64,000 bases of DNA. Source: an uncultured Actinomycetota bacterium. Lineage in GTDB: Bacteria > Actinomycetota > Actinomycetes > Jiangellales > Jiangellaceae. The stretch spans positions 2,969 through 66,968 of the forward strand of contig CAVWSM010000008.1 in assembly GCA_963757805.1 (NCBI GenBank), given 5' to 3'. The translations under genes were made by a program, and so were the position numbers. The notes beneath the pieces are model-generated. The model did no database searches. It was not told the DNA's origin and saw only the letters and a program-made list of their open reading frames with translations. Numbering within the stretch: the stretch's first letter is position 1; each line of letters opens with the position of its first letter. Shown one piece after another: positions 11,532-52,655 of this stretch.

Positions 11532-11540
11532 CGCGCTCGC

Positions 11541-12152: not shown

Positions 12153-12185
12153 GCCGTCACTGTAGGCGAGCCCGACTGGCCCGGC

Positions 12186-14368: not shown

Positions 14369-14430
14369 GGCGCGGCCCAGCCTACGTGCTGCCGACCCCC
14401 GGTTGGGAAGGGCGACGGGGGAGGTTTTCC

Positions 14431-15330: not shown

Positions 15331-15408
15331 GGCGGGAGCCTAACCCCCGGGGGCTCCGCCCCAGGAACCCCCGAAGAGCGTGCTGCGGGGCCATCTACGC
15401 TCGGGGCC

Positions 15409-16356
15409 GTGCCTGTCCCGAGAGTCGTCTACGCGATTCCGCTGCGCGCCCGATTCCGCGGCATCACCGTCCGCGAGGGCGTACTGGTCGAGGGGCCGGC
15501 CGGTTGGGGTGAGTTCTCGCCGTTCTGGGACTACGGCGCCGTCGAGTCGCGGTCGTGGTGGCTGGCGGCGCATGAGGCCGCGTACGAGGGCTGGCCGACG
15601 CCGGTCCGCGACTCGGTGCCTGTCAACGTCACCGTGCCCGCGGTCGACCCCGCCCGCGCGCACGAGATCGTCGCTGACTCCGGCTGCCGGACCGCCAAGG
15701 TCAAGGTCGCGGAGCCGGGTCAGCTGGCGGCCGAGGACGAGGCGCGGCTCGAAGCCGTACGCGACGCGCTCGGGCCATCGGGAGCGATCCGCATCGACGC
15801 CAACGGTGCGTGGGCAGTGGACGAGGCCGTACGGCTGCTGCGCTTGTACGACCAGGCAGCCGGCGGGCTGGAGTACGTCGAGCAGCCCTGTGCCACTGCC
15901 GAGGAGCTTGCGGCGGTGCGGCGGAAGGTCGACGTGCTCGTCGCTGCTGACGAGTCGATCAGGCGCTCGGACGACCCACTGCTGGTGTCCAGGCTCGGCG
16001 CGGCCGACGTCGCCGTGCTCAAAGTGCAGCCGCTCGGTGGAGTCCGGGCCGCGCTGGACGTCGCCGAGCAGATCGGGCTGCCGGTCGTGGTGTCGAGCGC
16101 GCTGGAGACGTCGATCGGCATCGCCGCCGGCGTCGCTCTCGCCGCGGCTTTGCCGGAGCTGCCATTTGCCTGCGGCTTGGGGACCGTACGGCTGCTCGAG
16201 CGCGATGTGGCGGCCGAGCCGATGCTGCCGGTCGACGGCATGCTGCGCGTACGTAAGGTCTCGCCCGATCCCGCCGCGCTCGAAGCCGTACGGGCCAATT
16301 CCGTGATGGTGGCTCGCTGGGAGCAGCGGTTGGCCGAGGTCGGGGCCAACGACTGA
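15409..16356 (+). CDS. menC: o-succinylbenzoate synthase
   Basis: GTG at 15409 (VPVPRVVYAIPLRARFRGITVREGVLVEG...). Enolase-superfamily motifs are KVKV, IRIDANGAW, YVEQP and ADES. It is divergent from menB. Confidence 0.85.
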   Translation: MPVPRVVYAIPLRARFRGITVREGVLVEGPAGWGEFSPFWDYGAVESRSWWLAAHEAAYEGWPTPVRDSVPVNVTVPAVDPARAHEIVADSGCRTAKVKVAEPGQLAAEDEARLEAVRDALGPSGAIRIDANGAWAVDEAVRLLRLYDQAAGGLEYVEQPCATAEELAAVRRKVDVLVAADESIRRSDDPLLVSRLGAADVAVLKVQPLGGVRAALDVAEQIGLPVVVSSALETSIGIAAGVALAAALPELPFACGLGTVRLLERDVAAEPMLPVDGMLRVRKVSPDPAALEAVRANSVMVARWEQRLAEVGAND

Positions 16357-16357
16357 C

Positions 16358-17434
16358 TCAGGTGGGCGCGTGGCCGGACGTCGTGCCGACCCGGAGCCGC
16401 ACGGGAAGCAGCACGTTGGCTGGGCGTTCCCCGCTGAGCAGGGCCGCGACGGCGTCCCCAGTCAGCCGGCCCTTCTCGATCAGCGGCTGCTCCACCGTGG
16501 TCAGGATGTGGTCGCCGAGTCCCGGCACATCGACGCCGTCGAAGCCGACGATGCTCACGTCGCCAGGCACCCGGAGTCCGAGCGCCTTGGCCGCGGAGAG
16601 GACGCCGCTTGCCAGCAAGTCGCTCTGGGCGACGATGGCTGTGGGGCGTGGCGACGATGCAAGCAGGAAGCGGGCCGCCCGCTCGCCGTCGGCGGGGAGC
16701 ATGCCGGCCTCGTAGACCTGCGGGAGCTTGCCGAGCGCGTCCACGACTCCGTCAAGGCGGCGTCGCACGGTGGCGAAGCTGCTGTGGGCGACGCGGTCGG
16801 CGTCGGCGGGGCCGGCGTCGCCCTCCGAGGAGAGTGGTAGCGCGACCACCGCGATGCGATCGGACTGATGCCCTAGGTCGAGCAGGTGCCTGACCGCCTG
16901 CGCCGTTCCGACGCGGTCATCGATCTCGATGAGCGTGATGTCGGGCTCTGCGGTTGGGCCTTCGACCCCGACCATCGGCACGCCCCGCCGGCGGAGCTGC
17001 ACGACGAGCGGGTCACCGTCTTCGCCGCAGGTCTCGAAGATCGCGGCGTCGAGCGGCACCCTGGCCACCTGTTGAAGGCTCGGCCCACTCTGCGCCCGGT
17101 CACCGGGCAGCAGGAGCAGGCTGAGGCCGAGCGGGTTGAGCACCTCGGAGACGCCGTCCATGAGGGCGATCTGCACCGGATCGCGGAAGGCGTTGAGCAC
17201 CCGGTCCCCGATGATCACGCCGACGACGCCCGAGCTGCCCCGCCGCAGCGACTGCGCGAGCGGGTCCGGCCCGGCGTAGCCCAGCTCGGCCGCCGCGGCG
17301 AGCACGCGCTCGCGGGTCTCGGCGGCCACGGGCCCGGCCCCGCTGAATGCGAGCGACGCCGTCGACCGAGAGACGCCGGCCCGGGCCGCGACAGCGGCGA
17401 GCGTCGGCCGGTGGACGTCAGCCGGTCTCGGCAC
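16358..17434 (-). CDS. LacI family transcriptional regulator
   Basis: 358 aa with the N-terminal HTH TLAAVAARAGVSRSTASLAFSG followed by a periplasmic-binding-protein-like sugar-binding core. Confidence 0.9.
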   Translation of the reverse strand: MPRPADVHRPTLAAVAARAGVSRSTASLAFSGAGPVAAETRERVLAAAAELGYAGPDPLAQSLRRGSSGVVGVIIGDRVLNAFRDPVQIALMDGVSEVLNPLGLSLLLLPGDRAQSGPSLQQVARVPLDAAIFETCGEDGDPLVVQLRRRGVPMVGVEGPTAEPDITLIEIDDRVGTAQAVRHLLDLGHQSDRIAVVALPLSSEGDAGPADADRVAHSSFATVRRRLDGVVDALGKLPQVYEAGMLPADGERAARFLLASSPRPTAIVAQSDLLASGVLSAAKALGLRVPGDVSIVGFDGVDVPGLGDHILTTVEQPLIEKGRLTGDAVAALLSGERPANVLLPVRLRVGTTSGHAPT

Positions 17435-17488
17435 GTGTGCCTCCGTTCGCCCGCCCCATCGCCCCGATCAACCCAGTGGGAAACGCAC

Positions 17489-17517
17489 TTGACGCTCTCG
17501 CTCGATCCAACGATACT
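17489..17517 (+). promoter_or_regulatory. sigma70-like promoter candidate, TTGACG-17 nt-GATACT, facing the MFS gene
   Basis: TTGACG at 17489-17494, a 17-nt spacer, then GATACT at 17512-17517. It lies in the 218-nt divergent region between the LacI and MFS genes. Confidence 0.4.
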
Positions 17518-17544
17518 CGAATCGATCCGATCGAATCGATTCGA
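17517..17544. promoter_or_regulatory. LacI-type operator candidate: TCGAATCGATCCGA followed by the perfect palindrome TCGAATCGATTCGA
   Basis: The 14-bp perfect palindrome at 17531-17544 has a central CG (AATCGATT core, resembling the AANCGNTT core of LacI-family operators). A near copy at 17517-17530 abuts the -10 candidate. Confidence 0.45.
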
Positions 17545-17652
17545 CCTGCTGCTGATCTCCCACAACGTCCGAGCAACCGTGCCGTATAGCGCTCGGTCCT
17601 TCGGACGTTGCGGGACAAGGCCGCGCGTTTGACCGCCCGGAGGGAGGCCGTC

Positions 17653-18907
17653 ATGTCGACAATCGTCACGAACAACCTGCACCTGGTGCGGGCGCGCACT
17701 GCCGTGCTGGCGGTGTTCGCTCTCAACGGGTTCCTTTTCGCCAACTGGGTGGCCCGCGTCCCCGCCGTCCGGGATGGGCTCGACCTGTCCTCCGGTCAGC
17801 TGGGCATGCTGCTGCTCGCCCTGTCTGCGGGCGCGGTCCTTGCCCTGCCGCTGGTCGGAGCGGTGGTCATGCAGGTGGGCACCCGCCGGACCGTGATGGC
17901 GGCTGCGCTCCTTGCCGCGGTCTCGATCGTCGTCGGAGCCACGGGTGTCGCCATGGGCAGCGTGCCCATGGCCGCGCTCGGGCTCTTCGGTGTCGGTGCC
18001 GGGACCGGCGCCTGGGACGTGGCGATGAACATCGAAGGTGCCGCCGTCGAGCGCGAGCTGGGGCGCACGGTGATGCCCCAATTCCACGCTGCCTTCAGCC
18101 TCGGTGCCGTGATCGGCGCCGCGACAGGAGCGCTTGCCGCCGTACTGGACCTGCCGTTCCTCATCCACCTGACCGCCGTCGGTGCCGTCATCGCTGCCAG
18201 CGTGGTCGCAGCCGTTCGCCGCTTCCTGCCCGACGAGGTGGTGGCGCGCGACGTCGCACCGTCCGGATCGTGGTCGGGCTGGCCGAGCCTTCGGCGCATG
18301 GCTGGAGCCGCGCACCCTGCTGGTCGGCGTCCTGGTCTTCGCCGCAGCGCTGACCGAAGGTGCCGCCAACGACTGGCTCGCCATTGCGGTGGTCGACGGC
18401 TACGACGGAACTGCTGCGCTCGGCGCCGTGACGTTCGCGGTGTTCGTCGCCGCCATGACCGCCGTTCGGCTAGGTGGTAACGAGCTGCTCGACCGGTTCG
18501 GTCGGGTCCGCGTGCTCCGCGCCAGTGCGGGCATTTCGTTGGCCGGCTTGCTGGTGTTCTCGCTGGCGCCGACGTTCGGCGTGGGTCTCGTCGGTGTCGT
18601 CGCATGGGGTGCCGGAGCTGCTCTGGCCTTCCCGGTCGGGATGTCAGCGGCCGCCGACGACCCCGTGCGCGCAGCGGCGCGTGTCTCCGTCGTCTCCTCG
18701 ATCGGTTACTGCGCGTTCCTCGCGGGTCCGCCGCTGCTGGGTCTCGTCGCCGACCACATCGGCATCCGCCACACGTTGCTGTTGATCGGCATCGGCCTGC
18801 TGACCAGCATCGTGGTCGCCCGCGCCGCCGCACCACTGGCCGGTCGGGCCCAGTCCGACGAAAACGAAACCTCAACCGCCGATCTGGCGATGGCCACCAG
18901 CGACTAG
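17653..18907 (+). pseudogene. MFS transporter, frame-disrupted as assembled
   Basis: ATG at 17653 after GGAGGGAGG. TM1-6 are in ORF 17608..18480 (MSTIVTNNLHLVRARTAVLAVFALNGFLFANW...). TM7-12 are in ORF 18182..18907 (...AFGAWLEPRTLLVGVLVFAAALTEGAANDWL...). The switch lies within 18250-18290. Confidence 0.8.
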
Positions 18908-18985
18908 GAGCAAGCCCCCGGGCATGCCCTAGCCTGCAGTCACCGGCGGCACGGCCGGGGAGGGAAGGTCCAGCGCAGCAGGAGG

Positions 18986-20728
18986 GTGACGTCGATGAAC
19001 CCGTCGACCGCGCTGGCCCGAGTCCTGGTCGACGAGCTGGCCCGCCACCGCGTCCGCGACGTTGTCCTGGCGCCGGGCTCGCGATCGGCGCCGTTGGCCT
19101 ACGCGCTGTACGACGCCGACCGCGCCGGCCGCCTTCGCCTGCACGTACGCATCGACGAGCGCACAGCCGGCTTCCTGGCCCTCGGGCTCGCCAAGGCTGC
19201 GCAATGGCCGGTCGCCGTGGTGACGACCAGCGGTACGGCCGTCGCCAACCTGCACCCGGCGGTCCTGGAGGCGCACCACGGGGGCGTTCCGCTGCTCGTG
19301 CTCAGCGCCGACCGCCCGCCTGAGCTCCGAGGCAGTGGCGCCAACCAGACGACCGATCAGGTCAAGCTGTTCGGCGACGCGGTGCGCCTCTTCCACGAAG
19401 TTGGCGCGCCCGAGCGGCTGCCCGGGCAGGTGGCCTACTGGCGTGGCCTCGTCAGCCGCGCCGTCGTCGTGGCGTGTGGGGAGCTGTCTGGAGACCCAGG
19501 GCCGGTCCACCTCAACGTCGCGTTCCGCGACCCGCTCGTGCCGGACGCCGGCGAGGACGACTGGCTCGAGCCGTTGGACGGTCGAGCCGGTGAGGCGCCA
19601 TGGACCACCGCTCAGAGCGTGCCGCCCTGGCTCGCGGCAAGCCACGGTGTCGACAGGCTGGGGGCGGAGCCACGCACGGTTGTGGTGGTCGGCGATGCCC
19701 CGCCGCTCGTCGGGCTGGCCGCCGCCGACCTGGCCGAGCGCCGCGGATGGCCGCTGCTCGCCGAGCCCTCGTCGGGAGCCTGGGGACGCAGCTCGATCGC
19801 GGCCGGGCCGCTCGTCGTAGGCTCGGTGGACTGGCTGGAGCAGCATCTTCCGAATCGCGTTGTCGTCGTCGGCCGACCGACCCTGTCCCGATCGATGGGT
19901 CGGCTGCTGAGGCACCCCGATGTGCAGGTCGACGTGGTCGCCGCGGCCCCACGGTGGTCGGATCCCGGATTGGTGGCAGCACGAGTCGTCGACGCATCTC
20001 AGCTGTGGATTGCGGCTGACGAGGAGCCAGTCGGCGTCACCGAGTTCCAGAAGGAGTGGCTCGACGCGGGACGCACGGCGCACGCCGTCGTGGACGAGGT
20101 GCTTGCGGGCGAGCCGGACCCCACCGGCTTCGGGGTCGCACGCGAAGTCTTCGCCGCAGCCCCCGAAGGCTCACTCGTGGTGCTCGGCTCGTCCAACCCC
20201 ATACGTGACGTCGACGTGGCGGCTGCTCCCGTCAACGGCCCGGTGTCCGTCCTCACCAACCGAGGCCTGGCGGGCATCGACGGCACAGTGTCGACCGCGG
20301 TCGGCGCCGCCCTCGAGCACCACAGCACGCATGCCCGGCCGTCGTACGCGCTCGTCGGGGACCTGACCTTCCTGCACGACTCGACCGGACTCGTGATCGG
20401 GTCCGACGAGCCGCGCCCCGACCTCACGATCGTCGTGGTCAATGACGACGGCGGCGGCATATTCACATTGCTGGAGCAGGGCGCGCCCGAGCTCGCCGGG
20501 CCGTTCGAGCGCATCTTCGGCACACCGCACCACGTCGACCTGGCCGCGCTGTGCGCCGCGACCCGTACGCCGCACCAACGCGTCAGAGATCTCGCGTCGC
20601 TACGGCAGGCCCTGGCCGAGCAGGGTGGCATCCGGGTGATCGAGGTGCCGGTCGACCGTGCCGGTCACCGCGCCTTGCATGCCCGGGTGCGCTCAGCCGT
20701 CGCTGCCGCGCTCGCCAACCTCCCGTAA
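18986..20728 (+). CDS. menD: 2-succinyl-5-enolpyruvyl-6-hydroxy-3-cyclohexene-1-carboxylate synthase
   Basis: 580 aa ThDP enzyme with NPSTALARVLVDELARHRVRDVVLAPGSRSAPL and GDLTFLHDSTGL...VVVNDDGGGIF. An alternative ATG start is at 18995. Confidence 0.9.
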   Translation: MTSMNPSTALARVLVDELARHRVRDVVLAPGSRSAPLAYALYDADRAGRLRLHVRIDERTAGFLALGLAKAAQWPVAVVTTSGTAVANLHPAVLEAHHGGVPLLVLSADRPPELRGSGANQTTDQVKLFGDAVRLFHEVGAPERLPGQVAYWRGLVSRAVVVACGELSGDPGPVHLNVAFRDPLVPDAGEDDWLEPLDGRAGEAPWTTAQSVPPWLAASHGVDRLGAEPRTVVVVGDAPPLVGLAAADLAERRGWPLLAEPSSGAWGRSSIAAGPLVVGSVDWLEQHLPNRVVVVGRPTLSRSMGRLLRHPDVQVDVVAAAPRWSDPGLVAARVVDASQLWIAADEEPVGVTEFQKEWLDAGRTAHAVVDEVLAGEPDPTGFGVAREVFAAAPEGSLVVLGSSNPIRDVDVAAAPVNGPVSVLTNRGLAGIDGTVSTAVGAALEHHSTHARPSYALVGDLTFLHDSTGLVIGSDEPRPDLTIVVVNDDGGGIFTLLEQGAPELAGPFERIFGTPHHVDLAALCAATRTPHQRVRDLASLRQALAEQGGIRVIEVPVDRAGHRALHARVRSAVAAALANLP

Positions 20729-45933: not shown

Positions 45934-45950
45934 GCGAGTCCTGATTGGCT

Positions 45951-45970
45951 GAGGGTGCCCCTGCGCCAAT
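45951..45970 (+). repeat. left junction direct repeat (attL core candidate)
   Basis: GAGGGTGCCCCTGCGCCAAT, embedded in the 27-nt imperfect palindrome ATTGGCTGAGGGTGCCCCTGCGCCAAT (45944-45970). Confidence 0.8.
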
Positions 45971-45980
45971 AGGCAGTTAG

Positions 45981-45992
45981 TGCATATAGGTG
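45981..45992 (+). repeat. left terminal inverted repeat TGCATATAGGTG
   Basis: It is the exact reverse complement of 52540-52551 and lies 10 nt inside the left direct repeat. Confidence 0.75.
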
Positions 45993-46037
45993 ACGTTGAG
46001 CTGGCAACGCTCTGAGCAGCGAGGATGCGCTCCCGAG

Positions 46038-46072
46038 TCGAGCTGAGCCGTTCGGTGTGTCGCTCAGCTCGA
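46038..46072. terminator. hairpin TCGAGCTGAGC-13 nt-GCTCAGCTCGA overlapping the stop of ORF 46064..46270
   Basis: The stem is 11 bp. The first 26 nt are repeated exactly at 46310-46335. Confidence 0.5.
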
Positions 46073-46270
46073 CACGTCCCGACGATGATCAAGGACGTCG
46101 ACCGCTTCGTCCACGAGCTCAGTCGCTCGTGCGAGCGCTGCCCACTCAGCTGGGCTGACGTCAAGCGGATCAACGTCGTGGTAGGCGTCTGCCAGCGCGA
46201 CGAGCATCTGCGCTCCGTGCTTCAACTTCTCGGCTGCGGCACTCGTGGTGGCGGGGGCGTCATCGGTCAC
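46064..46270 (-). CDS. island hypothetical protein, 68 aa, acidic
   Basis: MTDDAPATTSAAAEKLKHGAQMLVALADAYHDVDPLDVSPAEWAALARATELVDEAVDVLDHRRDVSS. The composition is protein-like, the start is GTG, and the ORF is bracketed by two copies of the same hairpin. Confidence 0.45.
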   Translation of the reverse strand: MTDDAPATTSAAAEKLKHGAQMLVALADAYHDVDPLDVSPAEWAALARATELVDEAVDVLDHRRDVSS

Positions 46271-46309
46271 GCGGGCACGCTAGCGCTGCGGTGTCGACCG
46301 TGCTCGTCA

Positions 46310-46351
46310 TCGAGCTGAGCCGTTCGGTGTGTCGCGCTCAGCTGCGCTCGA
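46310..46351. repeat. second, slightly degenerate copy of the 46038 hairpin, in the divergent region between ORFs 46270(-) and 46364(+)
   Basis: TCGAGCTGAGCCGTTCGGTGTGTCGC is identical to 46038-46063. The right arm carries small insertions (GCGCTCAGCTGCGCTCGA). Confidence 0.55.
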
Positions 46352-46363
46352 TAGGTTTCGATC

Positions 46364-46543
46364 ATGACGGCCAGCTCGACGACAGTGCTCGCCCCGCATG
46401 ATCGACGTCGCGTGATCATCAGGCACCACGACGGCACGTTTATTGGGACGCACAGTGAGTGGCTCGGCTCCGATCGGGTGCGGCGCCCGGCTGACGACGA
46501 ACTCGCGAGTTGGCAGCCGAGCTCGCTGCGTGTCGCGAGCTGA
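46364..46543 (+). CDS. island hypothetical protein, 59 aa (below ORF-track cutoff), upstream partner of the HEPN-like ORF
   Basis: ATG at 46364, TGA at 46541-46543. Translation is MTASSTTVLAPHDRRRVIIRHHDGTFIGTHSEWLGSDRVRRPADDELASWQPSSLRVAS. It ends 5 nt before the next ATG. Confidence 0.4.
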   Translation: MTASSTTVLAPHDRRRVIIRHHDGTFIGTHSEWLGSDRVRRPADDELASWQPSSLRVAS

Positions 46544-46548
46544 GACGC

Positions 46549-47007
46549 ATGACGCTCGATGACTATGACCTCGATGCCGCTGACAAGCTGTCCCTGCTCA
46601 TCGGTCGCGTCTGCCAAGCCGACGCCGAGCTCGAACGCGCCGTCCGAATCAAGGCGATCGTGCTTCACGTCGACGAGGTGTTGGCGGGCAGCAGGCCGCT
46701 GAAGCGTGACCTCAATCAGCTAGTGCAAATGTGCCGGGATGCGCTGGACACGACCGAGCTGCCGATCGATCACGATGTGGTCCGGGCCGCACTTGACGAG
46801 GCTGTCGCCGCTCACGAGGAGCGGAATCGAGTGGTGCACGATCAGTGGCTAATCGTCGAAAGCGGCAAGCTAGCTCGCGTGCAGACCTTGCCGCCATACA
46901 CGTTGCACTTCGACGCGTCGCAGCAGACGCTTGCTGAAGTCGAAGCAGTGCAGCGCCGACTGAACGCTGCCAGACAGGGCATTGAGCGCGCTCTGAGACC
47001 ACAGTGA
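46549..47007 (+). CDS. island protein, 152 aa, with RNxxxH motif (HEPN-like, putative RNase/toxin)
   Basis: ATG at 46549 (MTLDDYDLDAADKLSLLIGR...). The protein looks all-helical, with AVAAHEERNRVVHDQW about 50 aa from the C-terminus. This matches the R-[NDH]-x3-H HEPN signature and resembles the RNxLVHxY motif of DUF86/HepT. The antisense ORF 46267..46668 was rejected. Confidence 0.55.
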   Translation: MTLDDYDLDAADKLSLLIGRVCQADAELERAVRIKAIVLHVDEVLAGSRPLKRDLNQLVQMCRDALDTTELPIDHDVVRAALDEAVAAHEERNRVVHDQWLIVESGKLARVQTLPPYTLHFDASQQTLAEVEAVQRRLNAARQGIERALRPQ

Positions 47008-47020
47008 GCTGCGAGCTCAC
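47004..47020. terminator. short hairpin GTGAGCT-gcg-AGCTCAC between convergent island ORFs
   Basis: The 7-bp stem spans both stop codons (47005-47007 on plus, 47017-47019 on minus). Confidence 0.3.
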
Positions 47021-47201
47021 GCGACATGCTTCGCCATAGCGACCGTGCGGCCCACCTTGCCGTCGTTGAGGTACTGACGACCGCCCATGACGACGTAGAC
47101 CGGGCGCGCCTCGTCTGCGGCACGAGCGCACAGCTCGACGAGCACGCAGATGCTGCAGCCGTCAGCGCTGCTGTCGGTGCTCGTCGCAGCTCGCGCGCGC
47201 C

Positions 47202-47259
47202 GTCGAGCCAGAAGCTCGACGTCGCGCGTGCAGCGGCGACGTCGAGCGTCTGGCTCGAC
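47202..47259. repeat. 58-nt near-perfect inverted repeat (24-bp arms, 1 mismatch, 10-nt loop)
   Basis: GTCGAGCCAGAAGCTCGACGTCGC gcgtgcagcg GCGACGTCGAGCGTCTGGCTCGAC. A second imperfect inverted repeat flanks it at about 47125-47198. No convincing coding frame was found across 47150-47360. Confidence 0.7.
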
Positions 47260-47359
47260 CCGCACGGCAGCGACGACATCGACGCAGCGCTGAGCGGCTG
47301 CAGGCTACGGCTCGGGCAGCTGCACCCTCTGCCCAAGCTGGACCCCGCCCGGTCGTTGG

Positions 47360-47935
47360 TCAGCCTTCGAGTACCGGGACGACCGCAGCGCAGAAGTCGT
47401 CGGTCCGTCCTGTCGATCCCTTCACCTCGCCGAGGAACTCGAGGAACTCGTCGTCCGACGGGTCGGCCGGCGTGCCGCCATGGTCGATCAGCAACTCGAA
47501 CCGAATCTGGCCGGGGTTCCTGGCGAGGGCCTTGCCGTCCGGGCCGAACGCGGCGATGTTTCCGGTAGACAAGACGAGGATCGTGAGTGTGCCGTCGCCG
47601 TTGTCGGTCACGCGGAGGTCCTTGTCGACAAAGTTGCCGACCTCGGTGACGAAGTTGCCGTTGGCCACGTTCGTGTACACGGCGGTGAACTTGATGTTCG
47701 CATGGAAATAGACCAAGCCGTCCGGCCCGTGTCGGTTGACCAGCACGCGACCGTCGGCTACCTGGTCGAACTCGACCGTGAGGCCGTCAACGTCACAGAA
47801 GTCGTCGGTGATCTCGGTGAATTCGTCGTGGAATTTCGTGTGCTCGATCGGCTTGGCGGTGGCCCCTCCTGCCAGCGTCATCGAGCCCATCATGGCCAAT
47901 CCCGCCGCGAGCCCAAGCGTTCGCGCAAGCCTCAT
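47360..47935 (-). CDS. island secreted protein of unknown function
   Basis: ATG at 47935 after AAGGGGGG. The signal peptide is MRLARTLGLAAGLAMMGSMTLAGGATA. The mature part is beta-rich with two DDFC motifs, possibly forming a disulfide. Confidence 0.7.
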   Translation of the reverse strand: MRLARTLGLAAGLAMMGSMTLAGGATAKPIEHTKFHDEFTEITDDFCDVDGLTVEFDQVADGRVLVNRHGPDGLVYFHANIKFTAVYTNVANGNFVTEVGNFVDKDLRVTDNGDGTLTILVLSTGNIAAFGPDGKALARNPGQIRFELLIDHGGTPADPSDDEFLEFLGEVKGSTGRTDDFCAAVVPVLEG

Positions 47936-48060
47936 GATCCCCCCTTGGTCCAAGTGACCCCCCCGGTCACGTTGGGCCATGGTGACTCTCACCGGCATCG
48001 TCGTCAACAGTGCGACAACGAGGCCTGAGTCGTTGCAGGCTCAGGGGCGCCGGTGCGTAG

Positions 48061-48351
48061 TCAGATGCTGCCAGGGAGTGACGCACTGAGACTCGGCTGC
48101 CCTGCCGACCGGGCGTCAGCTATCTGGGGCACGCCCGGTCGGGCAGGGAGCTCGCGTCTGAGCAGCGGTGCCAGTCGACGTCGCGCGTCGTCGCAGGGGT
48201 GACTGTCACAGACGCTGTGCAGCTCGCGGAGCCATGCACGAGCTGCAGGGTGTCGCACGTACTGCGGCCCACACTCTCGGTCGCCAGCTCGCCAGCTGTC
48301 TCGCCCTGCCTCGATGACGATCGCGAGACACCGAGGACGGCGAGAGCTCAT
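48061..48351 (-). CDS. island hypothetical protein, 96 aa, Cys/His-containing
   Basis: The ATG at 48349-48351 overlaps the upstream stop (ATGA). Translation includes MSSRRPRCLAIVIEAGRDSWRAGDRECGPQYVRHPAARAWLRELHSVCDSHPCDD... Only the part from Met39 of ORF 48061..48465 is used. Confidence 0.4.
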   Translation of the reverse strand: MSSRRPRCLAIVIEAGRDSWRAGDRECGPQYVRHPAARAWLRELHSVCDSHPCDDARRRLAPLLRRELPARPGVPQIADARSAGQPSLSASLPGSI

Positions 48352-48937
48352 GCGCCGATCTGTGCGGCACCGGTCGGCTGCACACCGACGAGCACGTATC
48401 GGCTGTACGAGATGAGCGTGCCGAGCATCGCAGGCTGCACCCTCACGTCTTCGCGGAGCTCCCACAGCAGGATGGTGATCGCTGCAGGGTCGTACAAGAC
48501 CGGCTTCGGCACTGTGCTGTCGATGACTACGCGTACCCCGGCATCGGTGAGCTTGTCGAGGTCGAGCGTGAGCAAGCTCGACAACGAGCCGATGCGCACG
48601 GCTCTCGCTTCGAGCTCAGCCTTCTCGGCGGACTGCGGCGCGGCGATCGGCAGCTTCGACCGTCGGGCAGCACAGGCACACCCTGCGTGCTGGTCGTCGC
48701 GTTGATGATCGTCGCGTTCGTGGCGTCGAGTAGCGGCGCTGCAGCTGCGTCGAGCGCTGAGGCGATGTCGACGACCCAGGTGCCGATGAGCCCAGCTGCG
48801 CTCGTGTCGTCGGTCGTGATGTGCGGTTCACGCTTCAGCGCTGCGGCTCGTGTCGCGACGACAGTCAGACTCGGACGTCGATCGAGCGTCTGCTGATCGA
48901 GCGTCGGCGTAGGCGTCAGCAACGATGCGATGGTCAT
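48348..48937 (-). pseudogene. island hypothetical protein, about 196 aa, frame-disrupted as assembled
   Basis: ORF 48527..48937 reads well to ...TSTQGVPVLPDG. The continuation SKLPIAAPQSAEKAELEARAVRIGSLSSLLTLDLDKL...YVLVGVQPTGAAQIGA is in the frame of ORF 48348..48599. The switch lies at about 48655-48665. Confidence 0.5.
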
Positions 48938-48984
48938 GCGGTCGAGTCTCGACGCTGCTGCTCGTGTTCGGTCGTTTCGACGAC

Positions 48985-49371
48985 TCAGGGCAGCAGCACG
49001 AAGAGTCGCCCGTCGATCTTCTCGCCCACCAGCTGCCCTTTGCGGTAGCGCTTCGTGACAGCGCTGACGGTGATGCCGAGCTTGTCGGCGGCTTCACGCG
49101 CAGACACGTACAGGGCTCGAAGCGCTGCGTCTGCTTCGTCGTTGTCGTGAGTACGCTCGTCGAGCTTGATGACGTTGAGCATGTCGCTCATGCGTGGCTG
49201 CAGAGCTAGCAGCAGCTGCTTGTCGACGCGCCCACCAGATGCGCTCAGCGCTGTCAGGATCACGAGGCAGTCGTCTGGGTCGAGCTCGACGACGTTCGCG
49301 ACGCAGCGGCTCACCGACAGCTCCTGGTGAGCAAGTGACCGACCGAAGACGGGCGATCGGTCGCGATGCAC
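48985..49371 (-). CDS. island helix-turn-helix DNA-binding protein (excisionase/MerR-like HTH at C-terminus)
   Basis: The C-terminus LYVSAREAADKLGITVSAVTKRYRKGQLVGEKIDGRLFVL matches the excisionase-type HTH pattern. An alternative start is GTG 49314, preceded by AGGAG. Confidence 0.6.
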   Translation of the reverse strand: MHRDRSPVFGRSLAHQELSVSRCVANVVELDPDDCLVILTALSASGGRVDKQLLLALQPRMSDMLNVIKLDERTHDNDEADAALRALYVSAREAADKLGITVSAVTKRYRKGQLVGEKIDGRLFVLLP

Positions 49372-49516
49372 GGCGAGAGCTCGGGATGCAAGGCGAAGGC
49401 CGCACCTAGGTTTCGAACGTGTCGTTGAGAGAGAGAAACGCGAGTGTCACGAAAGGGTTGCCAGCTCGCGTCTCAGAAAACGATCATGCTCTCCTTCGAG
49501 CCGGTGAAGATGTGGA

Positions 49517-49765
49517 TCACGCAGCTGCGACCGCGTGCAGCACGTCGAGCAACGGCGGGTGCTGCACGCAGTCCGTGCCGTGATAGATGAGCGCGAGCTG
49601 CACGTCGTCACGCTGCTCTTGCCCGAGCAGCACAGTGCATGAGCACGGCTCGACTGCGTGCCGCAAGATGTCGAACGCGAGCTGGTCGCTGTGCAGTTGC
49701 AGCTCGACAACCCCATCGGCGCGATGATGCTCGACTGCGTAGCTACCGCTGCTGATCGTGTCCAT
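49517..49765 (-). CDS. island hypothetical protein, 82 aa
   Basis: MDTISSGSYAVEHHRADGVVELQLHSDQLAFDILRHAVEPCSCTVLLGQEQRDDVQLALIYHGTDCVQHPPLLDVLHAVAAA. Its composition is better than that of the overlapping ORF 49447..49824. Confidence 0.4.
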   Translation of the reverse strand: MDTISSGSYAVEHHRADGVVELQLHSDQLAFDILRHAVEPCSCTVLLGQEQRDDVQLALIYHGTDCVQHPPLLDVLHAVAAA

Positions 49766-49833
49766 GCATCGATGATCGACGCAGCTGGCTCTCGACGGTG
49801 GTGCTCACGACTGCGCCGCATCATCGGCTCAGC

Positions 49834-50019
49834 TCACTCGTCGTCGAGCTCGCGACCTTCGTCGTGCTGACCGATCGAGCGATAATCACGCACCGGCAGC
49901 TGATTGCGTCGCTCGTACTCAGCGACGGTCGAAGCGACTTGCTCGTCAGTGTCGTCGGCCGCTCGTGCGAGGTCGCCGCCGTAGGCGAGCGCGACCATGC
50001 GCGGGTAGCCGTTGCTCAC
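49834..50019 (-). CDS. island hypothetical protein, 61 aa, acidic
   Basis: The GTG start overlaps the stop of the preceding micro-ORF (GTGA). Translation is VSNGYPRMVALAYGGDLARAADDTDEQVASTVAEYERRNQLPVRDYRSIGQHDEGRELDDE. Confidence 0.4.
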   Translation of the reverse strand: MSNGYPRMVALAYGGDLARAADDTDEQVASTVAEYERRNQLPVRDYRSIGQHDEGRELDDE

Positions 50020-50114
50020 CTTGCGGATACGCCGCGCAGTCGTGAGACAAGATCGGGGAAGTCCCTACGCAGCCGCTCGACGTCGACGCTGCTCGGTGTG
50101 CTGAAGTTGCTCAC
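50016..50114 (-). CDS. island micro-ORF, 32 aa (not in ORF track)
   Basis: VSNFSTPSSVDVERLRRDFPDLVSRLRGVSAR. Both its start and its stop sit in GTGA overlaps with the neighbouring ORFs. Confidence 0.3.
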   Translation of the reverse strand: MSNFSTPSSVDVERLRRDFPDLVSRLRGVSAR

Positions 50115-50275
50115 GTCGCGCCCCAGCCGTGATCTTTGAGCCCGTACGTGAGGTGCTGCGCTCGACGAGCTGCTGCGTCGCTCAGATGCACGAGCGGGCG
50201 CTGGCAGCTCGGCAGCGCGCGTCTGGTGACGCCTGGCAGCGTCCCCTCGACGCGTCGCCGAAGTCGGGCCATCAT
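50111..50275 (-). CDS. island micro-ORF, 54 aa (not in ORF track)
   Basis: ATG at 50275 preceded by GGGAG. Translation is MMARLRRRVEGTLPGVTRRALPSCQRPLVHLSDAAARRAQHLTYGLKDHGWGAT. Confidence 0.35.
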   Translation of the reverse strand: MMARLRRRVEGTLPGVTRRALPSCQRPLVHLSDAAARRAQHLTYGLKDHGWGAT

Positions 50276-50305
50276 GAAGGTGCTCCCGTCAAGAGCCTGA
50301 GGCGG

Positions 50306-50551
50306 TCACCTGTGCTGGGTGATCGCCTCGTCGTTGTGTAGCTGCTGCTGAGCTGCTCGCTGCTCGACAGCCAGCTGCGCGTGCCTGGTGCGAATCTCGT
50401 CGAGCAAAGCGGCTACGGAGTCGAGCTGTTCGTCAGTCAACGGCGGAAGCTTCGCGACGTCTTCAGCCGCGTGCGCCATGCGCAGCTTGTCGAGCTCCCG
50501 CTGACGCTGTGCCCGCCGAGCCTCGCGACGCCCTTCCGCCCGCGCGCTCAT
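50306..50551 (-). CDS. island hypothetical protein, 81 aa, coiled-coil-like
   Basis: MSARAEGRREARRAQRQRELDKLRMAHAAEDVAKLPPLTDEQLDSVAALLDEIRTRHAQLAVEQRAAQQQL... The ATG overlaps the upstream stop (ATGA). Confidence 0.45.
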   Translation of the reverse strand: MSARAEGRREARRAQRQRELDKLRMAHAAEDVAKLPPLTDEQLDSVAALLDEIRTRHAQLAVEQRAAQQQLHNDEAITQHR

Positions 50552-50726
50552 CGCTCGACGTCGGCTGTCTCGATGAGCTCGGCCTGTTGCGCTGTTTGGA
50601 CGATGCGCTCGATCTGTTCTCGCTCGTACGGTCCCCGGTCTGGATCTTGTCGAGGATCAACTGCGTGCGCCGCACTCTCGCGCTTCTCTCCCAGGCGATC
50701 TTCTGCCGCTTCGGTTGCGCAGTCAT
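50548..50726 (-). pseudogene. island small protein, about 58 aa, first gene of the leftward operon, frame-disrupted as assembled
   Basis: ATG at 50726 gives MTAQPKRQKIAWERSARVRRTQLILDKIQT. After the GGGG run at 50633-50636 the sensible continuation GPYEREQIERIVQTAQQAELIETADVER is in another frame. That frame ends in an ATGA overlap with the next ORF. Confidence 0.4.
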
Positions 50727-50832
50727 ACTGAGCTCGTCAACGTTCGTCACGCGCCCAGTGTGTGAGCACAATCGCGAAGGCAGTAGTCGTGATTTGCAGT
50801 GCGCCAACGCGAACAGTGGACGCGTTTCGCGC

Positions 50833-50951
50833 ACTTGAAGTCGGTACATGTCGTGACTTGAAGTTGCGTGCCGAATCTTGGCGAGTCACGAAGTGACGCA
50901 CCAGGAACGCTTGTGCACACCTTGACGGATTCGACGAATCGAACGCCGTTC
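50833..50951. promoter_or_regulatory. cluster of short palindromes in the recombinase/operon intergenic region
   Basis: ACTTGAAGT occurs twice (50833-50841 and 50856-50864). Other palindromes are GTCACgaaGTGAC (50885-50897), GATTCGaCGAATC (50928-50940) and GAACGcCGTTC (50941-50951). The region is AT-richer. Confidence 0.4.
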
Positions 50952-51016
50952 GCGACACACGACCACGGAAGCGCCGCCAGCTCGACGTCTGACGGCACTT
51001 CGTGAGCGGGACGAGC

Positions 51017-52522
51017 TCAGTCGTTGAGCTCGAACCTGTCGGCGCTGCCGCGTGCGCCCCGGTACAGAATGAAGCCCCTCGGGATCGCCCGCGTGATCAT
51101 CGCTCGCCGCTCGGCAGGGGTGGTGCGCTCGTCGTCCCAGAGCGCAGAAACAGCGTCCTCACTCTCAGCTTGCGCGTGCTCGTCAGCACCCGCCTTCAAC
51201 AGCTCGTCACGCTCGGCTGTCAGCTTCGCGAGCCGCGCATCAAGCGGCGCTGCCGCAGCGTCGTAACGATCGAGCGCTATCTCTTCGCGCCCGAGCCGGT
51301 CAGCGAGCGTGACAGCCAGCTGCTCCGCTTGGGCGATCTTCGCTGACACAGCTGCGACAGCTCGCGAGCGTCGAGCGATCTGCTCGGCGTGCTTCGGATC
51401 GGACAGCCGCTTGATCACTCTGTCGCGCACCCAGCGCTCCGCGATACGCGCATCGATCTGTTGGCCGCATGACTTGCAGCGGTAGATGCGACGCGGCTGC
51501 CCGTCGTCGTACGTGTCGCGGCTCGTGCCGGGTCTGATCATCCCCGACAGGCCACGCTTGCAGTCGCCGCAGCGACCGACACCGGACAGGATGTGATCGC
51601 CGCTGTAAGGACGTCCGCGACGACGAGCTGCGAACGACGACGCGATCTGCTCGAAGCGGTCGACACTGATGATCGGCTGCACGTTCGTCGCTGTGCGCAG
51701 CGCACCCGGCTGGGCCTCGTACAGACCCGCGTGTCGCGGGTTGTTGAGCGCCTTCGCGACTGTCAGCCCGTCCCACTTGCGCCCGATCGTCGTTGTCAGC
51801 CCTGCAGCGTTCCAGCTGCGTGCGATCGCTGCCAGCGTCTCCCCCTGATCCAGGTACGCGTCGATCGCTTCGACGAGCGCAGCACGCTCCCGCTCGACGA
51901 GCTCGGCGTCTGTCCCCTTGCCGGGGTGCCCGAACGCACGCTGTCCGTTGCCCATGACGCTCGCCTCCCGTCGTGCTGCTGCCTTGCGCCGCTGACGGCG
52001 ACTGGTGTTGTCGCTCTCTTTGCACGCGGCAGCTGTCAGCACGCGCAGCGTGAAGCGATCATCAGAGCTCGCGAGGTCGTACTCACCGAAGCAGCTCGCG
52101 ACGGTCAGCCCGCTGTCAGCGAGCGCGATCAGCACTTCGAGGTCGAACGGCTGGCGCATCAGCCGGTCGGTGTGCCAGACGACGACACCCTGCGCTTGAC
52201 GGTTCTTCAGCCGATCGACGAGCTCGTCCCACCCGGGACGCTTGCGATTGCGCTGCCACGCGCTCTTGTTGTCGTCACGCAGCACCCGCCCGAGACGTGC
52301 GCCACGACGCTCGACTTCACGCAGACAGTCGAGCAGCTGCCGGTCCGTCTTCTCCGTCTCGTCATCTTCGTTGTCGGGGTTGCGCGAGATGCGCGCAGAC
52401 GCGTCGAGCACGTCTGCCGAGGCGAACACCGGGTCGTGATCACGCTCGCGCAGACGTGCCGCGACGACATGCCAGCTGTCGTTGGTCGAGCTAGGTTGAT
52501 CTTGTTTCAGAGTCGCTGTCAT
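51017..52522 (-). CDS. large serine recombinase (resolvase catalytic domain, recombinase domain, zinc ribbon, coiled coil)
   Basis: ATG at 52522 (MTATLKQDQ...). The catalytic region is ASARISRNPDNEDDETEKTDRQ...RPGWDELVDRLKNRQAQGVVVWHTDRLMRQ. The recombinase domain includes LAAIARSWNAAGLTT...WDGLTVAKALNNPRHAGL. The zinc ribbon is RCGDCKRGL...YRCKSCGQ, followed by a long helical C-terminus. Confidence 0.9.
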   Translation of the reverse strand: MTATLKQDQPSSTNDSWHVVAARLRERDHDPVFASADVLDASARISRNPDNEDDETEKTDRQLLDCLREVERRGARLGRVLRDDNKSAWQRNRKRPGWDELVDRLKNRQAQGVVVWHTDRLMRQPFDLEVLIALADSGLTVASCFGEYDLASSDDRFTLRVLTAAACKESDNTSRRQRRKAAARREASVMGNGQRAFGHPGKGTDAELVERERAALVEAIDAYLDQGETLAAIARSWNAAGLTTTIGRKWDGLTVAKALNNPRHAGLYEAQPGALRTATNVQPIISVDRFEQIASSFAARRRGRPYSGDHILSGVGRCGDCKRGLSGMIRPGTSRDTYDDGQPRRIYRCKSCGQQIDARIAERWVRDRVIKRLSDPKHAEQIARRSRAVAAVSAKIAQAEQLAVTLADRLGREEIALDRYDAAAAPLDARLAKLTAERDELLKAGADEHAQAESEDAVSALWDDERTTPAERRAMITRAIPRGFILYRGARGSADRFELND

Positions 52523-52539
52523 GCAGCAAGTCTGAAGAG

Positions 52540-52551
52540 CACCTATATGCA
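52540..52551 (+). repeat. right terminal inverted repeat CACCTATATGCA
   Basis: It is the reverse complement of 45981-45992. It lies 18 nt inside the right direct repeat and 18 nt upstream of the recombinase start codon. Confidence 0.75.
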
Positions 52552-52569
52552 TGGTCTACAGGTCTGTCA

Positions 52570-52589
52570 GAGGGTGCCCCTGCGCCAAT
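52570..52589 (+). repeat. right junction direct repeat (attR core candidate)
   Basis: GAGGGTGCCCCTGCGCCAAT, identical to 45951-45970. Confidence 0.8.
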
Positions 52590-52621
52590 CCTGGGTTGGC
52601 TGAGGGCGGCCCTGCGCCAAT
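52590..52621 (+). repeat. third, variant copy of the target palindrome unit (CCTGGGTTGGCTGAGGGCGGCCCTGCGCCAAT)
   Basis: It differs from the left unit CCTGATTGGCTGAGGGTGCCCCTGCGCCAAT (45940-45970) at about 4 positions. It directly abuts the right direct repeat. It also pairs with GGCGCAGGGAGCCGCC (52629-52644) as a hairpin just after the phoX stop. Confidence 0.7.
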
Positions 52622-52655
52622 CAGCAGCGGCGCAGGGAGCCGCCCCCCTGTGGTC

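Follow-up and report, generated by a model that had tools for sequence, protein, structure and literature searches.

Among the described systems with which the locus studied here can be compared, phiRv1 of Mycobacterium tuberculosis is likewise actinobacterial and small (about 9 kb), with a large serine recombinase and a repeated chromosomal target. It is a prophage-like element classed as a PICI-like satellite by SatelliteFinder (PMC10085698), and its junctions share a 12-bp identical core (PMC3986857), as against 20 bp in the present island. About 14% of AICEs use serine integrases, and 'remnant AICEs' without rep or tra have been described (PMC3218068). In SCC/ECC, as in the island, a serine recombinase (Ccr in that case) moves a cargo cassette without transfer genes, and the ends are direct repeats containing inverted repeats (PMC6222049). 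The attP and attB sites of the SPbeta integrase SprA share a 16-bp identical segment (PMC5499854), and a long junction repeat is therefore compatible with the 2-bp crossover chemistry.

The locus is a 6.6-kb stretch within 64,000 nucleotides of DNA (the window) from an uncultured Actinomycetota bacterium. It is a genuine integrative element, with att-like repeats at its bounds and a large serine recombinase as its driver, and it belongs, as a reduced and probably immobilised further case, to a rare family of small actinomycete integrating elements; it is not a new minimal or defence system. The comparison is provided by an undescribed 9.5-kb element (L081/L082) of an uncultured actinomycete (ENA ERZ25039541): the island is collinear with L081 positions 9961-19483 (blastn), and the two integrases are 79% identical.

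Boundaries and insertion site

As the preliminary description had claimed, the island lies between the convergent genes for GH15 (stop at 45933) and phoX (stop at 52656), bracketed by a perfect 20-bp direct repeat, GAGGGTGCCCCTGCGCCAAT; 100 dinucleotide shuffles of the window, with 3 mismatches permitted, gave 0 chance matches to this repeat. The features of the two ends are as follows.

45951-45970, plus strand: left 20-bp direct repeat, forming the att junction towards GH15
45981-45992, plus strand: terminal inverted repeat TGCATATAGGTG, kept in L081/L082, partner at 52540-52551
52540-52551, plus strand: terminal inverted repeat CACCTATATGCA, partner of 45981-45992
52570-52589, plus strand: right 20-bp direct repeat, forming the att junction towards phoX
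52596-52627, plus strand: host repeat unit TTGGCTGAGGGCGGCCCTGCGCCAATCAGCAG, third imperfect copy

The left repeat, together with 6-11 nt to its left, forms the near-palindromic host unit CCTGATTGGCTGAGGGTGCCCCTGCGCCAAT, and a third copy of the repeat, with 2 mismatches, is found at 52602-52621, just outside the right one. Since the TTGGCTGAGGGCGGCCCTGCGCCAATCAGCAG unit falls within the terminator-like palindrome that follows phoX, it belongs to the surroundings of the target site and not to the element. The 12-bp terminal inverted repeats, which occur only twice in the window, lie just inside the ends; read on the coding (minus) strand, CACCTATATGCA precedes the integrase start codon (52522) by 17 nt, and TGCATATAGGTG is a candidate for the outer motif to which the integrase binds in the attP arm. 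Homology with L081 stops at window positions 52563 and 45959, that is, at the repeats, and the end motifs are kept between the two elements while the flanks differ, L081 having a Suc_Fer-like gene on one side, an xthA-like/pirin region on the other and a 16-bp palindrome split by its insertion. A dyad symmetry of attP may be carried by the inverted repeats common to both elements; the central region is 13 nt longer in the island than in L081, where the crossover cannot be placed.

The island has a GC content of 64.95%, versus 68.7% for the rest of the window, and is its lowest-GC 6.6-kb stretch (mean 68.2%, sd 1.7); the reported drop in base composition is therefore real, whereas the reported change in codon style comes down to a GC3 only slightly below that of the host genes. 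For the proposed empty-site comparison, the only syntenic relative found was a genome (L001) that shares the polyprenyl-GH15 / phoX-YCII synteny with the window: the island is absent there, and GH15 and phoX are 126 bp apart (stop codon to stop codon), with only similar tandem units between them. Both an empty site from a near-identical strain and the circular junction were sought and neither was found. At least three datasets contain the island, all copies seen being from a single species and sharing one chromosomal site, and its end motifs had no match in IMG/VR or JGI metagenomes.

Integrase and cargo

About 9-10 ORFs of the island have a coding-like GC1/GC2/GC3 pattern, two of them being pieces of one broken gene, so that the earlier figure of about 15 small ORFs was too high. 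The genes and associated features are listed in order.

46038-46335, no strand: 272-bp segment, absent from L081/L082, with a perfect 26-bp direct repeat at its ends (46038-46063, 46310-46335)
46364-46543, plus strand: small ORF of 59 aa, 39% identical to a 115-aa ORF of L082 (9047-9394)
46549-47007, plus strand: P0082, 152-aa orphan, the earlier 'HEPN-like' ORF, all-helical, with an ERNRVVH (Rx4H) motif
47202-47259, no strand: hairpin with 24-nt arms (96% complementary) and a 10-nt loop, lying where the P0082 and secreted-protein genes converge
47360-47935, minus strand: secreted protein of 191 aa, 84% identical to a 177-aa protein of L081, the best-conserved cargo
48354-48937, minus strand: broken homologue of the 271-aa L081 protein P0081, in pieces in two frames
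48985-49371, minus strand: 128-aa protein with a C-terminal Xis/MerR-type HTH, 35% identical to a 117-aa excisionase-like protein of L081
49427-50200, minus strand: segment in place of the 3.5-kb replication module of L081, with only orphan ORFs (49517-49765, 49834-50019)
50306-50551, minus strand: 81-aa charged protein, 74% identical to the 80-aa L081 ORF adjoining the integrase
51017-52522, minus strand: large serine recombinase of 501 aa (exact match P0001)

The recombinase noted earlier was borne out by Pfam (Resolvase, 2e-16; Recombinase, 4e-9) and by PHROG_95 integrase (1e-61). By Pfam and alignment, it has the features of a serine integrase, namely an N-terminal resolvase domain with R-x-S and D-R-x-x-R and a C-terminal Recombinase domain with a Cys4 ribbon; the Zn_ribbon_recom match is weak (0.006, below its cut-off), and C318, C321 and C349 are conserved. 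The catalytic Ser46 (52385-52387), Arg44, the D119-R120-R123 cluster and the ribbon are all there, and the alignment shows no variation at R44, S46, D119, R120 and R123. The conserved Tyr four residues ahead of the catalytic Ser (Tn3 Y6) is, however, replaced: position 42 is Ser (TCT, 52397-52399), while Tyr is found in 79/79 homologues, so that the window integrase reads SARIS against Y-x-R-x-S in all of them. In Tn3 resolvase, the Y6A and Y6F changes abolish in vivo activity and lower the cleavage rate about 5000-fold, while Bxb1 integrase tolerates Val at that position (PMC2794168). Because its ORF is intact and Bxb1 tolerates Val there, the island integrase may still be active. The integrases related to it at 47-50% identity come from complete temperate actinophages.

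Among the cargo, only the 128-aa protein has a profile match, to a weak Xis-type HTH, beyond which nothing was found in Pfam, PHROGs, NCBIfam or PADLOC; it is a candidate recombination directionality factor or regulator. The directionality factor of phiRv1 reportedly has, going back to Bibb & Hatfull 2002, an Xis-type HTH as well. The secreted protein belongs to a large uncharacterised family of 787 clusters and its model, all-beta and of good confidence, has no structural neighbour; the family is worth keeping in view. The 272-bp segment encloses a 68-aa ORF (46064-46270, minus strand), and the hairpin is likely a bidirectional terminator. An unrelated 171-aa ORF on the opposite strand stands in the place of P0082 in L081, by which this position is assigned, from the two sequences, as a variable cargo slot. 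As stated in the preliminary description, no replication, transfer or virion gene is recognised in the island by Pfam, PHROG or tblastn, including any PHROG structural or lysis match (terminase, portal, capsid, tail, lysis).

The fuller relative and a probable history

L081 and the island have in common the gene order, the terminal motifs and the 80-aa, Xis-like, 271-aa and secreted-protein genes. L081 differs in its insertion site, which is perfectly palindromic and has no direct repeat, in the gene of the left-end cargo slot, in an intact 271-aa gene, and in a 3.5-kb replication module that codes for a 296-aa Toprim-like protein (phrog_6247, 3e-27), a 367-aa DUF3631 protein (9e-47), which is the RepAM of pMEA300 (PMC3218068), and a 283-aa Toprim primase-like protein (phrog_6088, 6e-19). 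With tblastn, no match to any of the three proteins was seen in the whole 64-kb window. The 640 bp found at the position of the module are unrelated sequence with no clean deletion scar, and the direction of the 3.5-kb difference (loss in the window versus gain in L081) is read from only two lineages. The intact 271-aa P0081 matches PHROG 2263 'major head protein' (5.6e-8) and has no Pfam match, significant PDB sequence match, phage tblastn match or other homologue. In the window, 48937-48662 codes for its residues 1-91 and 48542-48354, in another frame, for residues 208-270.

A sister copy (L094), 99.1-99.4% identical and at the same locus, is without window positions 49152-52339, including almost the whole integrase, and carries a set of deletions unlike that of the window copy; its junction is scrambled, and an assembly artefact is possible. 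The window's P0081 homologue is 201 bp shorter than that of L094, the deletion lying at 48580/48582; the window frameshifts could partly be sequencing errors, which the 201-bp indel cannot be.

It is fairly probable that the island is a reduced copy, by now stranded, of one of the small elements that integrate in soil actinomycetes. An ancestor like the L081 element would have used its phage-type serine integrase to recombine attP, that is, the joined element ends, imperfectly palindromic and having CACCTATATGCA and TGCATATAGGTG as outer arms, with a GC-rich near-palindromic host repeat unit in the terminator region between GH15 and phoX, leaving junctions that now have 20 bp in common. Comparison with L081 suggests that the replication module (RepAM/DUF3631 and two Toprim/primase-like genes) was later lost; comparison with L081 and L094 shows that the capsid-like gene has been broken and shortened, and comparison with the homologues that the integrase has acquired Ser at the conserved Tyr of its active-site region. 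What is left is the integrase, the Xis-type HTH protein as a possible directionality factor, a few orphan ORFs and the well-conserved secreted protein. With a working integrase, the island could give an excised circle (expected junction …CAGGTCTGTCAGAGGGTGCCCCTGCGCCAATAGGCAGTTAGTGC…; expected repaired site …GATTGGCTGAGGGTGCCCCTGCGCCAATCCTGGGTTGG…), the replication or movement of which would then need a helper. Because it would neither replicate nor move by itself, its most likely behaviour is that of a fixed, slowly eroding genomic island. The intact look of both att junctions counts against a stranded remnant.

Those junctions, along with the intact integrase ORF and terminal inverted repeats, would also be expected of a functional minimal hitch-hiker, i.e. 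a helper-dependent satellite or integrative mobilisable island that keeps nothing beyond its integrase, Xis-like factor, att sites and a small payload, and for which a co-resident phage or conjugative element supplies replication, packaging or transfer. The retained Xis-type protein, the secreted-protein gene held at 84% identity, an integrase within the phage clade, the occurrence in several datasets and the existence of small serine-integrase satellites in Actinomycetota, such as the PICI-like phiRv1 (PMC10085698) and EPIPs (PMC12822802), all speak for it. Nevertheless, nothing in the island was recognised as a packaging signal, small terminase, relaxase or oriT, the capsid-like gene persists in broken form instead of being cleanly absent, the sister copy has lost its integrase, the Tyr-to-Ser change is unique, every copy seen is at one site in one species and the end motifs go unmatched in the metagenomes searched, so that we regard such a hitch-hiker as unlikely. 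That the 6.6-kb form is itself a working satellite or hitcher, excised by integrase and Xis-like protein, replicated, packaged or transferred by a helper and carrying the secreted beta-protein and the HEPN-motif orphan as payload, appears rather improbable. Of the 'minimal integrative element' proposed earlier, the integrative part thus stands, while minimality by design finds no support in view of the missing L081 module, the broken capsid-like gene and the differing deletions of L094; 'satellite-like' was a fair lead for the parent family, its basis being only the one PHROG match and analogy.

Deletion of a conventional prophage or AICE down to its integration module is decidedly improbable: temperate phages do dominate the integrase clade and the L081 RepAM is an AICE-type initiator (PMC3218068), but the fuller relative is only 9.5 kb long and has no FtsK/SpoIIIE Tra, Spd, tail, terminase or lysis genes, and the immediate ancestor was therefore already small, not a 40-kb phage or a 13-kb AICE; furthermore, the 296-aa protein of L081 is not an AICE Prim-Pol. 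The preliminary description had also seen in the cargo a compact accessory or defence unit. The idea of an integrase-delivered anti-phage or toxin module, made up of a HEPN-like protein and its partners, draws on the Rx4H motif and predicted helices of P0082, on the different gene in its slot in L081, as is often the case with defence 'morons', and on a methyltransferase/Mrr-type nuclease gene carried by L083, a more distantly related island within that integrase clade. Yet P0082 has no homologue among 5.8 billion proteins, its single-sequence AF2 model is of low confidence (pLDDT 55) and finds no HEPN or other fold in the PDB by Foldseek, and for the cargo as a whole PADLOC-DB v2 gives no defence signature, only a 21-bit HTH match of the Xis-like protein to mad1, with no defence protein in Pfam, NCBIfam or PHROGs either, which makes a defence module very improbable indeed. 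Under the preferred reading of a reduced, eroding copy, the absence of replication and virion genes reflects erosion and not a new minimal design, a lesson for annotation; a decaying integrative island is in itself a modest finding.

Comparison with known integrating elements

The SCC/ECC likeness does not extend to the target, which is an intergenic palindrome instead of rlmH, to the host, a high-GC actinomycete, or to the integrase, which is not a Ccr orthologue (NCBIfam scores of 18-28 bits versus cut-offs of 700-900). SPbeta is a full-size phage integrated inside a gene, and its kinship in sequence goes no further than the recombinase superfamily. No relaxase family of the kind expected in a Tn4451-type element was detected in the island.

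AICEs of the pMEA300/pSE211 type have in common with the parent family, as represented by L081, the RepAM (DUF3631) initiator, that of L081 being 37-39% identical to initiators of 13-14-kb Streptomyces AICE-like plasmids. Judged by the definition of Bordeleau et al. 2011, the island has the Tyr/Ser integrase and lacks both Rep (RepSA, RepAM/DUF3631 or Prim-Pol) and FtsK/SpoIIIE Tra; in fact, neither the window nor L081 has FtsK/SpoIIIE Tra, Spd, Nudix/Pif or Kor, and the window is also without Rep. Compared with PICI/phiRv1-like elements, phiRv1 keeps capsid, protease and primase genes and the island has none: an integrase is not accompanied by a primase or initiator of its own, the replication genes being found in L081, and of a capsid or packaging gene there are only the broken fragments of the P0081 homologue.

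What is of wider interest is the parent family, with only three to four copies among billions of proteins, in which actinomycete elements of about 9.5 kb bring together a serine integrase of the phage clade with an AICE-type RepAM initiator, with Toprim primases and possibly with a capsid-like gene. Its integrases, distant from characterised ones and targeting GC-rich intergenic palindromes, are of some interest as tool material, and the family itself sits between AICEs and phiRv1-like satellites.

Boundaries and target site of the island

The island lies between two convergent host genes, with the following boundaries and principal features.

45933: stop codon of the GH15-like gene, left neighbour of the island
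45951-45970 and 52570-52589: direct repeat, 20-mer GAGGGTGCCCCTGCGCCAAT, zero mismatches
45981-45992 and 52540-52551: perfect 12-bp inverted repeat inside the direct repeats, TGCATATAGGTG and CACCTATATGCA, respectively
47360-47935, minus strand: secreted 191-aa protein of an uncharacterised family
51017-52522, minus strand: large serine recombinase (integrase), 501 aa, from Pfam and PHROG
52656: stop codon of phoX, right neighbour of the island
Element end motif: CACCTATATGCAYTAACTGCC
Predicted repaired attB: GAGTCCTGATTGGCTGAGGGTGCCCCTGCGCCAATCCTGGGTTGGCTGAGG
Predicted circular attP: CTACAGGTCTGTCAGAGGGTGCCCCTGCGCCAATAGGCAGTTAGTGCATATAGG

The preliminary description had claimed perfect 20-bp direct repeats, a large serine recombinase gene, a position between the GH15 and phoX stop codons and a drop in base composition, all of which were borne out. 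The two repeat copies are exact, and when the window was shuffled 100 times with its dinucleotides preserved, no match arose even with three mismatches tolerated; a third one, differing at two positions, is found at 52602-52621, immediately to the right of the right-hand repeat. The 12-bp inverted-repeat motif has no further copies in the window. With a GC content of 64.95%, compared with 68.7% elsewhere in the window, the island is the lowest 6.6-kb stretch across the 64 kb. The number of small ORFs had been set too high at about 15, a coding-like codon-position GC pattern being found in about nine or ten. The GC content of the island is lowest (about 62-63%) in the 465 bp between an 81-aa ORF and the integrase stop codon (50552-51016), which have no convincing ORF, no Rfam match and no similarity to the corresponding segment of L081, a contig carrying a related element, where a 65-aa ORF is found.

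Syntenic relatives were sought through a scan of PhoX loci, with one genome per species. The sole one is L001, a metagenome-assembled genome of an uncultured Actinomycetota bacterium (identity to the window: PhoX 78%, GH15 73%, polyprenyl synthase 92%, YCII protein 90%), in which 126 bp separate the GH15 and phoX stop codons; no related recombinase lies downstream of phoX at the other 79 PhoX loci. The L001 spacer (12053-12178) consists of tandem near-palindromic units of approximately 30 bp, and the host spacer of the window (45934-45970 and 52590-52655) is built in the same way, with a sequence diverged from that of L001. The left repeat with its left flank (CCTGATTGGCTGAGGGTGCCCCTGCGCCAAT) is similar to the unit that follows the right repeat (CCTGGGTTGGCTGAGGGCGGCCCTGCGCCAAT), the two being host repeat units, and the reconstructed empty site of the window folds into a long hairpin. 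The 6.6 kb of the window are an insertion, and the GH15-phoX spacer appears to be a bidirectional terminator of conserved architecture, used also as an integration target.

The comparison with empty sites, proposed in the preliminary description, showed the spacer without the island in L001 and yielded no closer empty site. JGI metagenomes and IMG/VR, queried with the 20-mer and with the conserved motif of the element ends for an empty site or a circular junction, gave no matches, and when PhoX and its YCII neighbour were looked up by exact protein sequence, only a sister contig with the island came back. A tRNA or ncRNA target was ruled out, the window containing neither tRNA genes nor an Rfam family, as was a dispersed host repeat, the repeat unit being confined to this locus within the 64 kb.

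Relatives of the island

The exact window integrase (P0001) is on record once. Its next relative (P0002, 79% identity) is encoded on contigs L081 and L082, both from one other sample. By blastn, L081 9961-19483 and the island have the same order of homologous segments, with nucleotide identities of 81% in the integrase, 77.5% in the region of the adjacent 80-aa ORF, 82% in the secreted-protein region (84% at the amino acid level) and 90-91% at the left end. The homology stops at window positions 52563 and 45959, that is, at the repeats. L081 retains the terminal motifs TGCATATAGGTG (at 9973) and CACCTATATGCA (at 19450), while its flanks, with a Suc_Fer-like gene on one side and an xthA-like/pirin region on the other, are unrelated to those of the window. 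The window island is one member of a small mobile-element family.

L081 is flanked by the halves of a perfect 16-bp palindrome, rather than by a direct repeat (CGACACAACGGCACCC at 9937 and GGGTGCCGTTGTGTCG at 19481), which, when rejoined, form a hairpin (z = -5.8). A 51%-identical integrase (P0003) is found in an island of about 9.8 kb (contig L083, 1560-10975) flanked by an inverted 14-bp sequence (ACCGCAGGGGTGCT and AGCACCCCTGCGGT; contig L084, 152-165 and 9977-9990). From the split palindrome and the inverted flanks, it follows that this clade targets GC-rich palindromes between genes, as would be expected of serine integrases. The junctions of all three islands share a GCAGGGG(Y)(R)C-like motif. 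One gene of the P0003 island encodes a 557-aa fusion of an N6/N4 methyltransferase with Mrr-type and NA-iREase1 nuclease domains. In L087, a 40-kb phage contig with a 46%-identical integrase, a 48-bp palindromic candidate attP (about 9950-10003; TTGCACCTAAATAGC, 18 nt, GCTATATAGGTGCAA) overlaps the integrase start codon, its arms being similar to the window end motif CACCTATATGCA. The joined ends of the window element have 13 extra central nucleotides compared with L081, and superposing the L081 geometry did not define the crossover dinucleotide, the two sides giving different ones.

The genes of L081 are as follows.

65-aa and 80-aa ORFs, after the integrase
296-aa protein: phrog_6247 (3e-27)
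367-aa protein: DUF3631 (9e-47)
283-aa protein: Toprim primase-like, phrog_6088 (6e-19)
117-aa protein: excisionase-type HTH
271-aa protein P0081: phrog_2263 'major head protein' (5.6e-8)
177-aa secreted protein
171-aa orphan

DUF3631 denotes RepAM, which initiates replication in the AICE pMEA300 (PMC3218068), and the L081 protein is 37-39% identical to those on 13-14-kb AICE-like plasmids of Streptomyces, which also have Prim-Pol, FtsK-type Tra and Spd genes; the L081 element, however, is devoid of the FtsK-type Tra and Spd transfer genes. The 296-aa protein shows about 28% identity to Pseudomonas and Xylella phage proteins, and its identification as an AICE Prim-Pol was rejected on comparison. 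A capsid assignment of P0081 gained no further support, with no match in 50,697 phage records, no homologue in a set of 5.8 billion proteins and no significant sequence match in the PDB; nor is it similar to AICE SpdB.

Relative to L081, genes are missing and broken in the window. No trace of those for the 296-, 367- and 283-aa proteins was found anywhere in the 64 kb, their slot being filled by some 640 bp of unrelated DNA in which two orphan ORFs lie, and the P0081 homologue is split into residues 1-91 (48937-48662) and, in another frame, 208-270 (48542-48354). The 3.5-kb difference would have arisen by loss from the window copy.

Integrase, sister copy and cargo

The window integrase matches Pfam Resolvase (2e-16), Recombinase (4e-9), weakly a zinc ribbon, and PHROG_95 'integrase' (1e-61). 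Aligned with ten homologues, it retains Arg44, the nucleophile Ser46, Asp119, Arg120, Arg123 and the zinc-ribbon cysteines. At position 42 it has Ser (TCT, 52397-52399) where all 79 homologues with an N-terminus have Tyr, so that Y-x-R-x-S reads SARIS. In Tn3 resolvase, Y6A and Y6F abolish activity in vivo and lower the cleavage rate about 5000-fold, while Bxb1 integrase has a natural Val at this position (PMC2794168); the change is, therefore, suggestive of impairment rather than proof of it.

A sister contig from another sample (L094), reached through the orphan protein P0082, is 99.1-99.4% identical to the window from 45928, through the island and phoX, for 7.5 kb. It has an extra 201 bp at window 48580/48582, within the P0081-like gene, so that the window copy carries a deletion there. 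In turn, it lacks window 49152-52339, that is, small ORFs and nearly the entire integrase, replaced by a scrambled, inverted 185-nt fragment of the integrase N-terminus (L094 3407-3591; ENA ERZ25039565 contig_99992). The fragment, 92-94% identical to the window gene as against 99% for the rest of the island, reads YARIA, with Tyr kept and Ala at the catalytic Ser. This junction either reflects a genuine rearrangement or was introduced by the assembly; taken as it stands, one and the same insertion has eroded differently on two nearly identical chromosomes. The contig ends exactly at window 45928, adjoining the left att junction.

Pfam, NCBIfam, PHROG and PADLOC assign none of the island ORFs other than the integrase, save for weak Xis/MerR-type HTH matches of a 128-aa protein (48985-49371), homologous to the excisionase-like protein of L081 and the most obvious candidate directionality factor. 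P0082 (46549-47007, 152 aa) had been described as a HEPN-like module. The ERNRVVH motif is present, but the protein retrieved itself alone from 5.8 billion proteins, and the HEPN reading gained no support from the low-confidence helical single-sequence AF2 model (pLDDT 55), which matched only generic helical bundles in the PDB (Foldseek). An unrelated gene on the opposite strand occupies this slot in L081, and P0082 is, therefore, variable cargo. The secreted protein belongs to a family of 787 representative clusters (E<=0.001; length about 190 aa) with a conserved pair, Cys47/Cys182, and no Pfam domain in the 33 members checked; in one 4054-aa member, part of the domain is repeated 22 times. 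Its confident AlphaFold model (pLDDT 89) predicts an all-beta fold with eight long strands and no structural neighbour in PDB or BFVD (best TM 0.1-0.3).

Between the convergent P0082 and secreted-protein genes, a strong hairpin is found at 47202-47259 (24-nt arms, 96% complementary; 10-nt loop). At 46038-46335, a 272-bp segment with a 68-aa acidic ORF on the minus strand (46064-46270) is bounded by two perfect direct copies of a 26-mer (TCGAGCTGAGCCGTTCGGTGTGTCGC, at 46038 and 46310). The 26-mer occurs once in L081 and L082, and the segment, which looks like a small secondary insertion or duplication within the island, is absent there.

Origin of the island and known elements

On balance, we favour the view that the island descends from an L081-like element and is now reduced and probably stranded. 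Serine recombination would have placed such an ancestor in the terminator palindromes between GH15 and phoX, the replication module and the P0081 gene would have been lost after integration, and the integrase may be impaired; the island has presumably lost its mobility. The main rival, that the reduced form still works as a helper-dependent hitcher, finds precedent in actinobacterial satellites of 9-11 kb with serine integrases, both phiRv1/PICI-like (PMC10085698) and EPIPs (PMC12822802), but we hold it unlikely, no packaging or mobilisation function being recognisable in the island.

The 45-50%-identical relatives of the integrase come from temperate actinophages that are complete and have tail, lysis and Prim-Pol genes, while the best identity among isolated phages is about 30%. 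That the island is the remnant of a full prophage or AICE appears rather improbable. The cargo had also been proposed to form a compact accessory or defence unit. Nothing indicates that these genes are a functional unit, no plausible ORF of the island received a defence assignment from PADLOC, Pfam, NCBIfam or PHROG, and we give a defence cassette very little credence.

The parent family is uncommon; it joins a phage-clade integrase with AICE-type RepAM, Toprim primases and possibly a capsid-related gene, and merits separate study, the window copy being of little mechanistic novelty. The latter is a serine-integrase genomic island or remnant integrative element, of a kind already known. Its long direct repeat is a peculiarity of the target, with its tandem near-palindromic units, together with 20 bp of attP/attB identity, and long identical att segments are known for other serine recombinases, such as phiRv1 (12 bp shared; PMC3986857), SPbeta SprA (16 bp; PMC5499854) and the Ccr cassettes (repeats of about 50 bp; PMC6222049).
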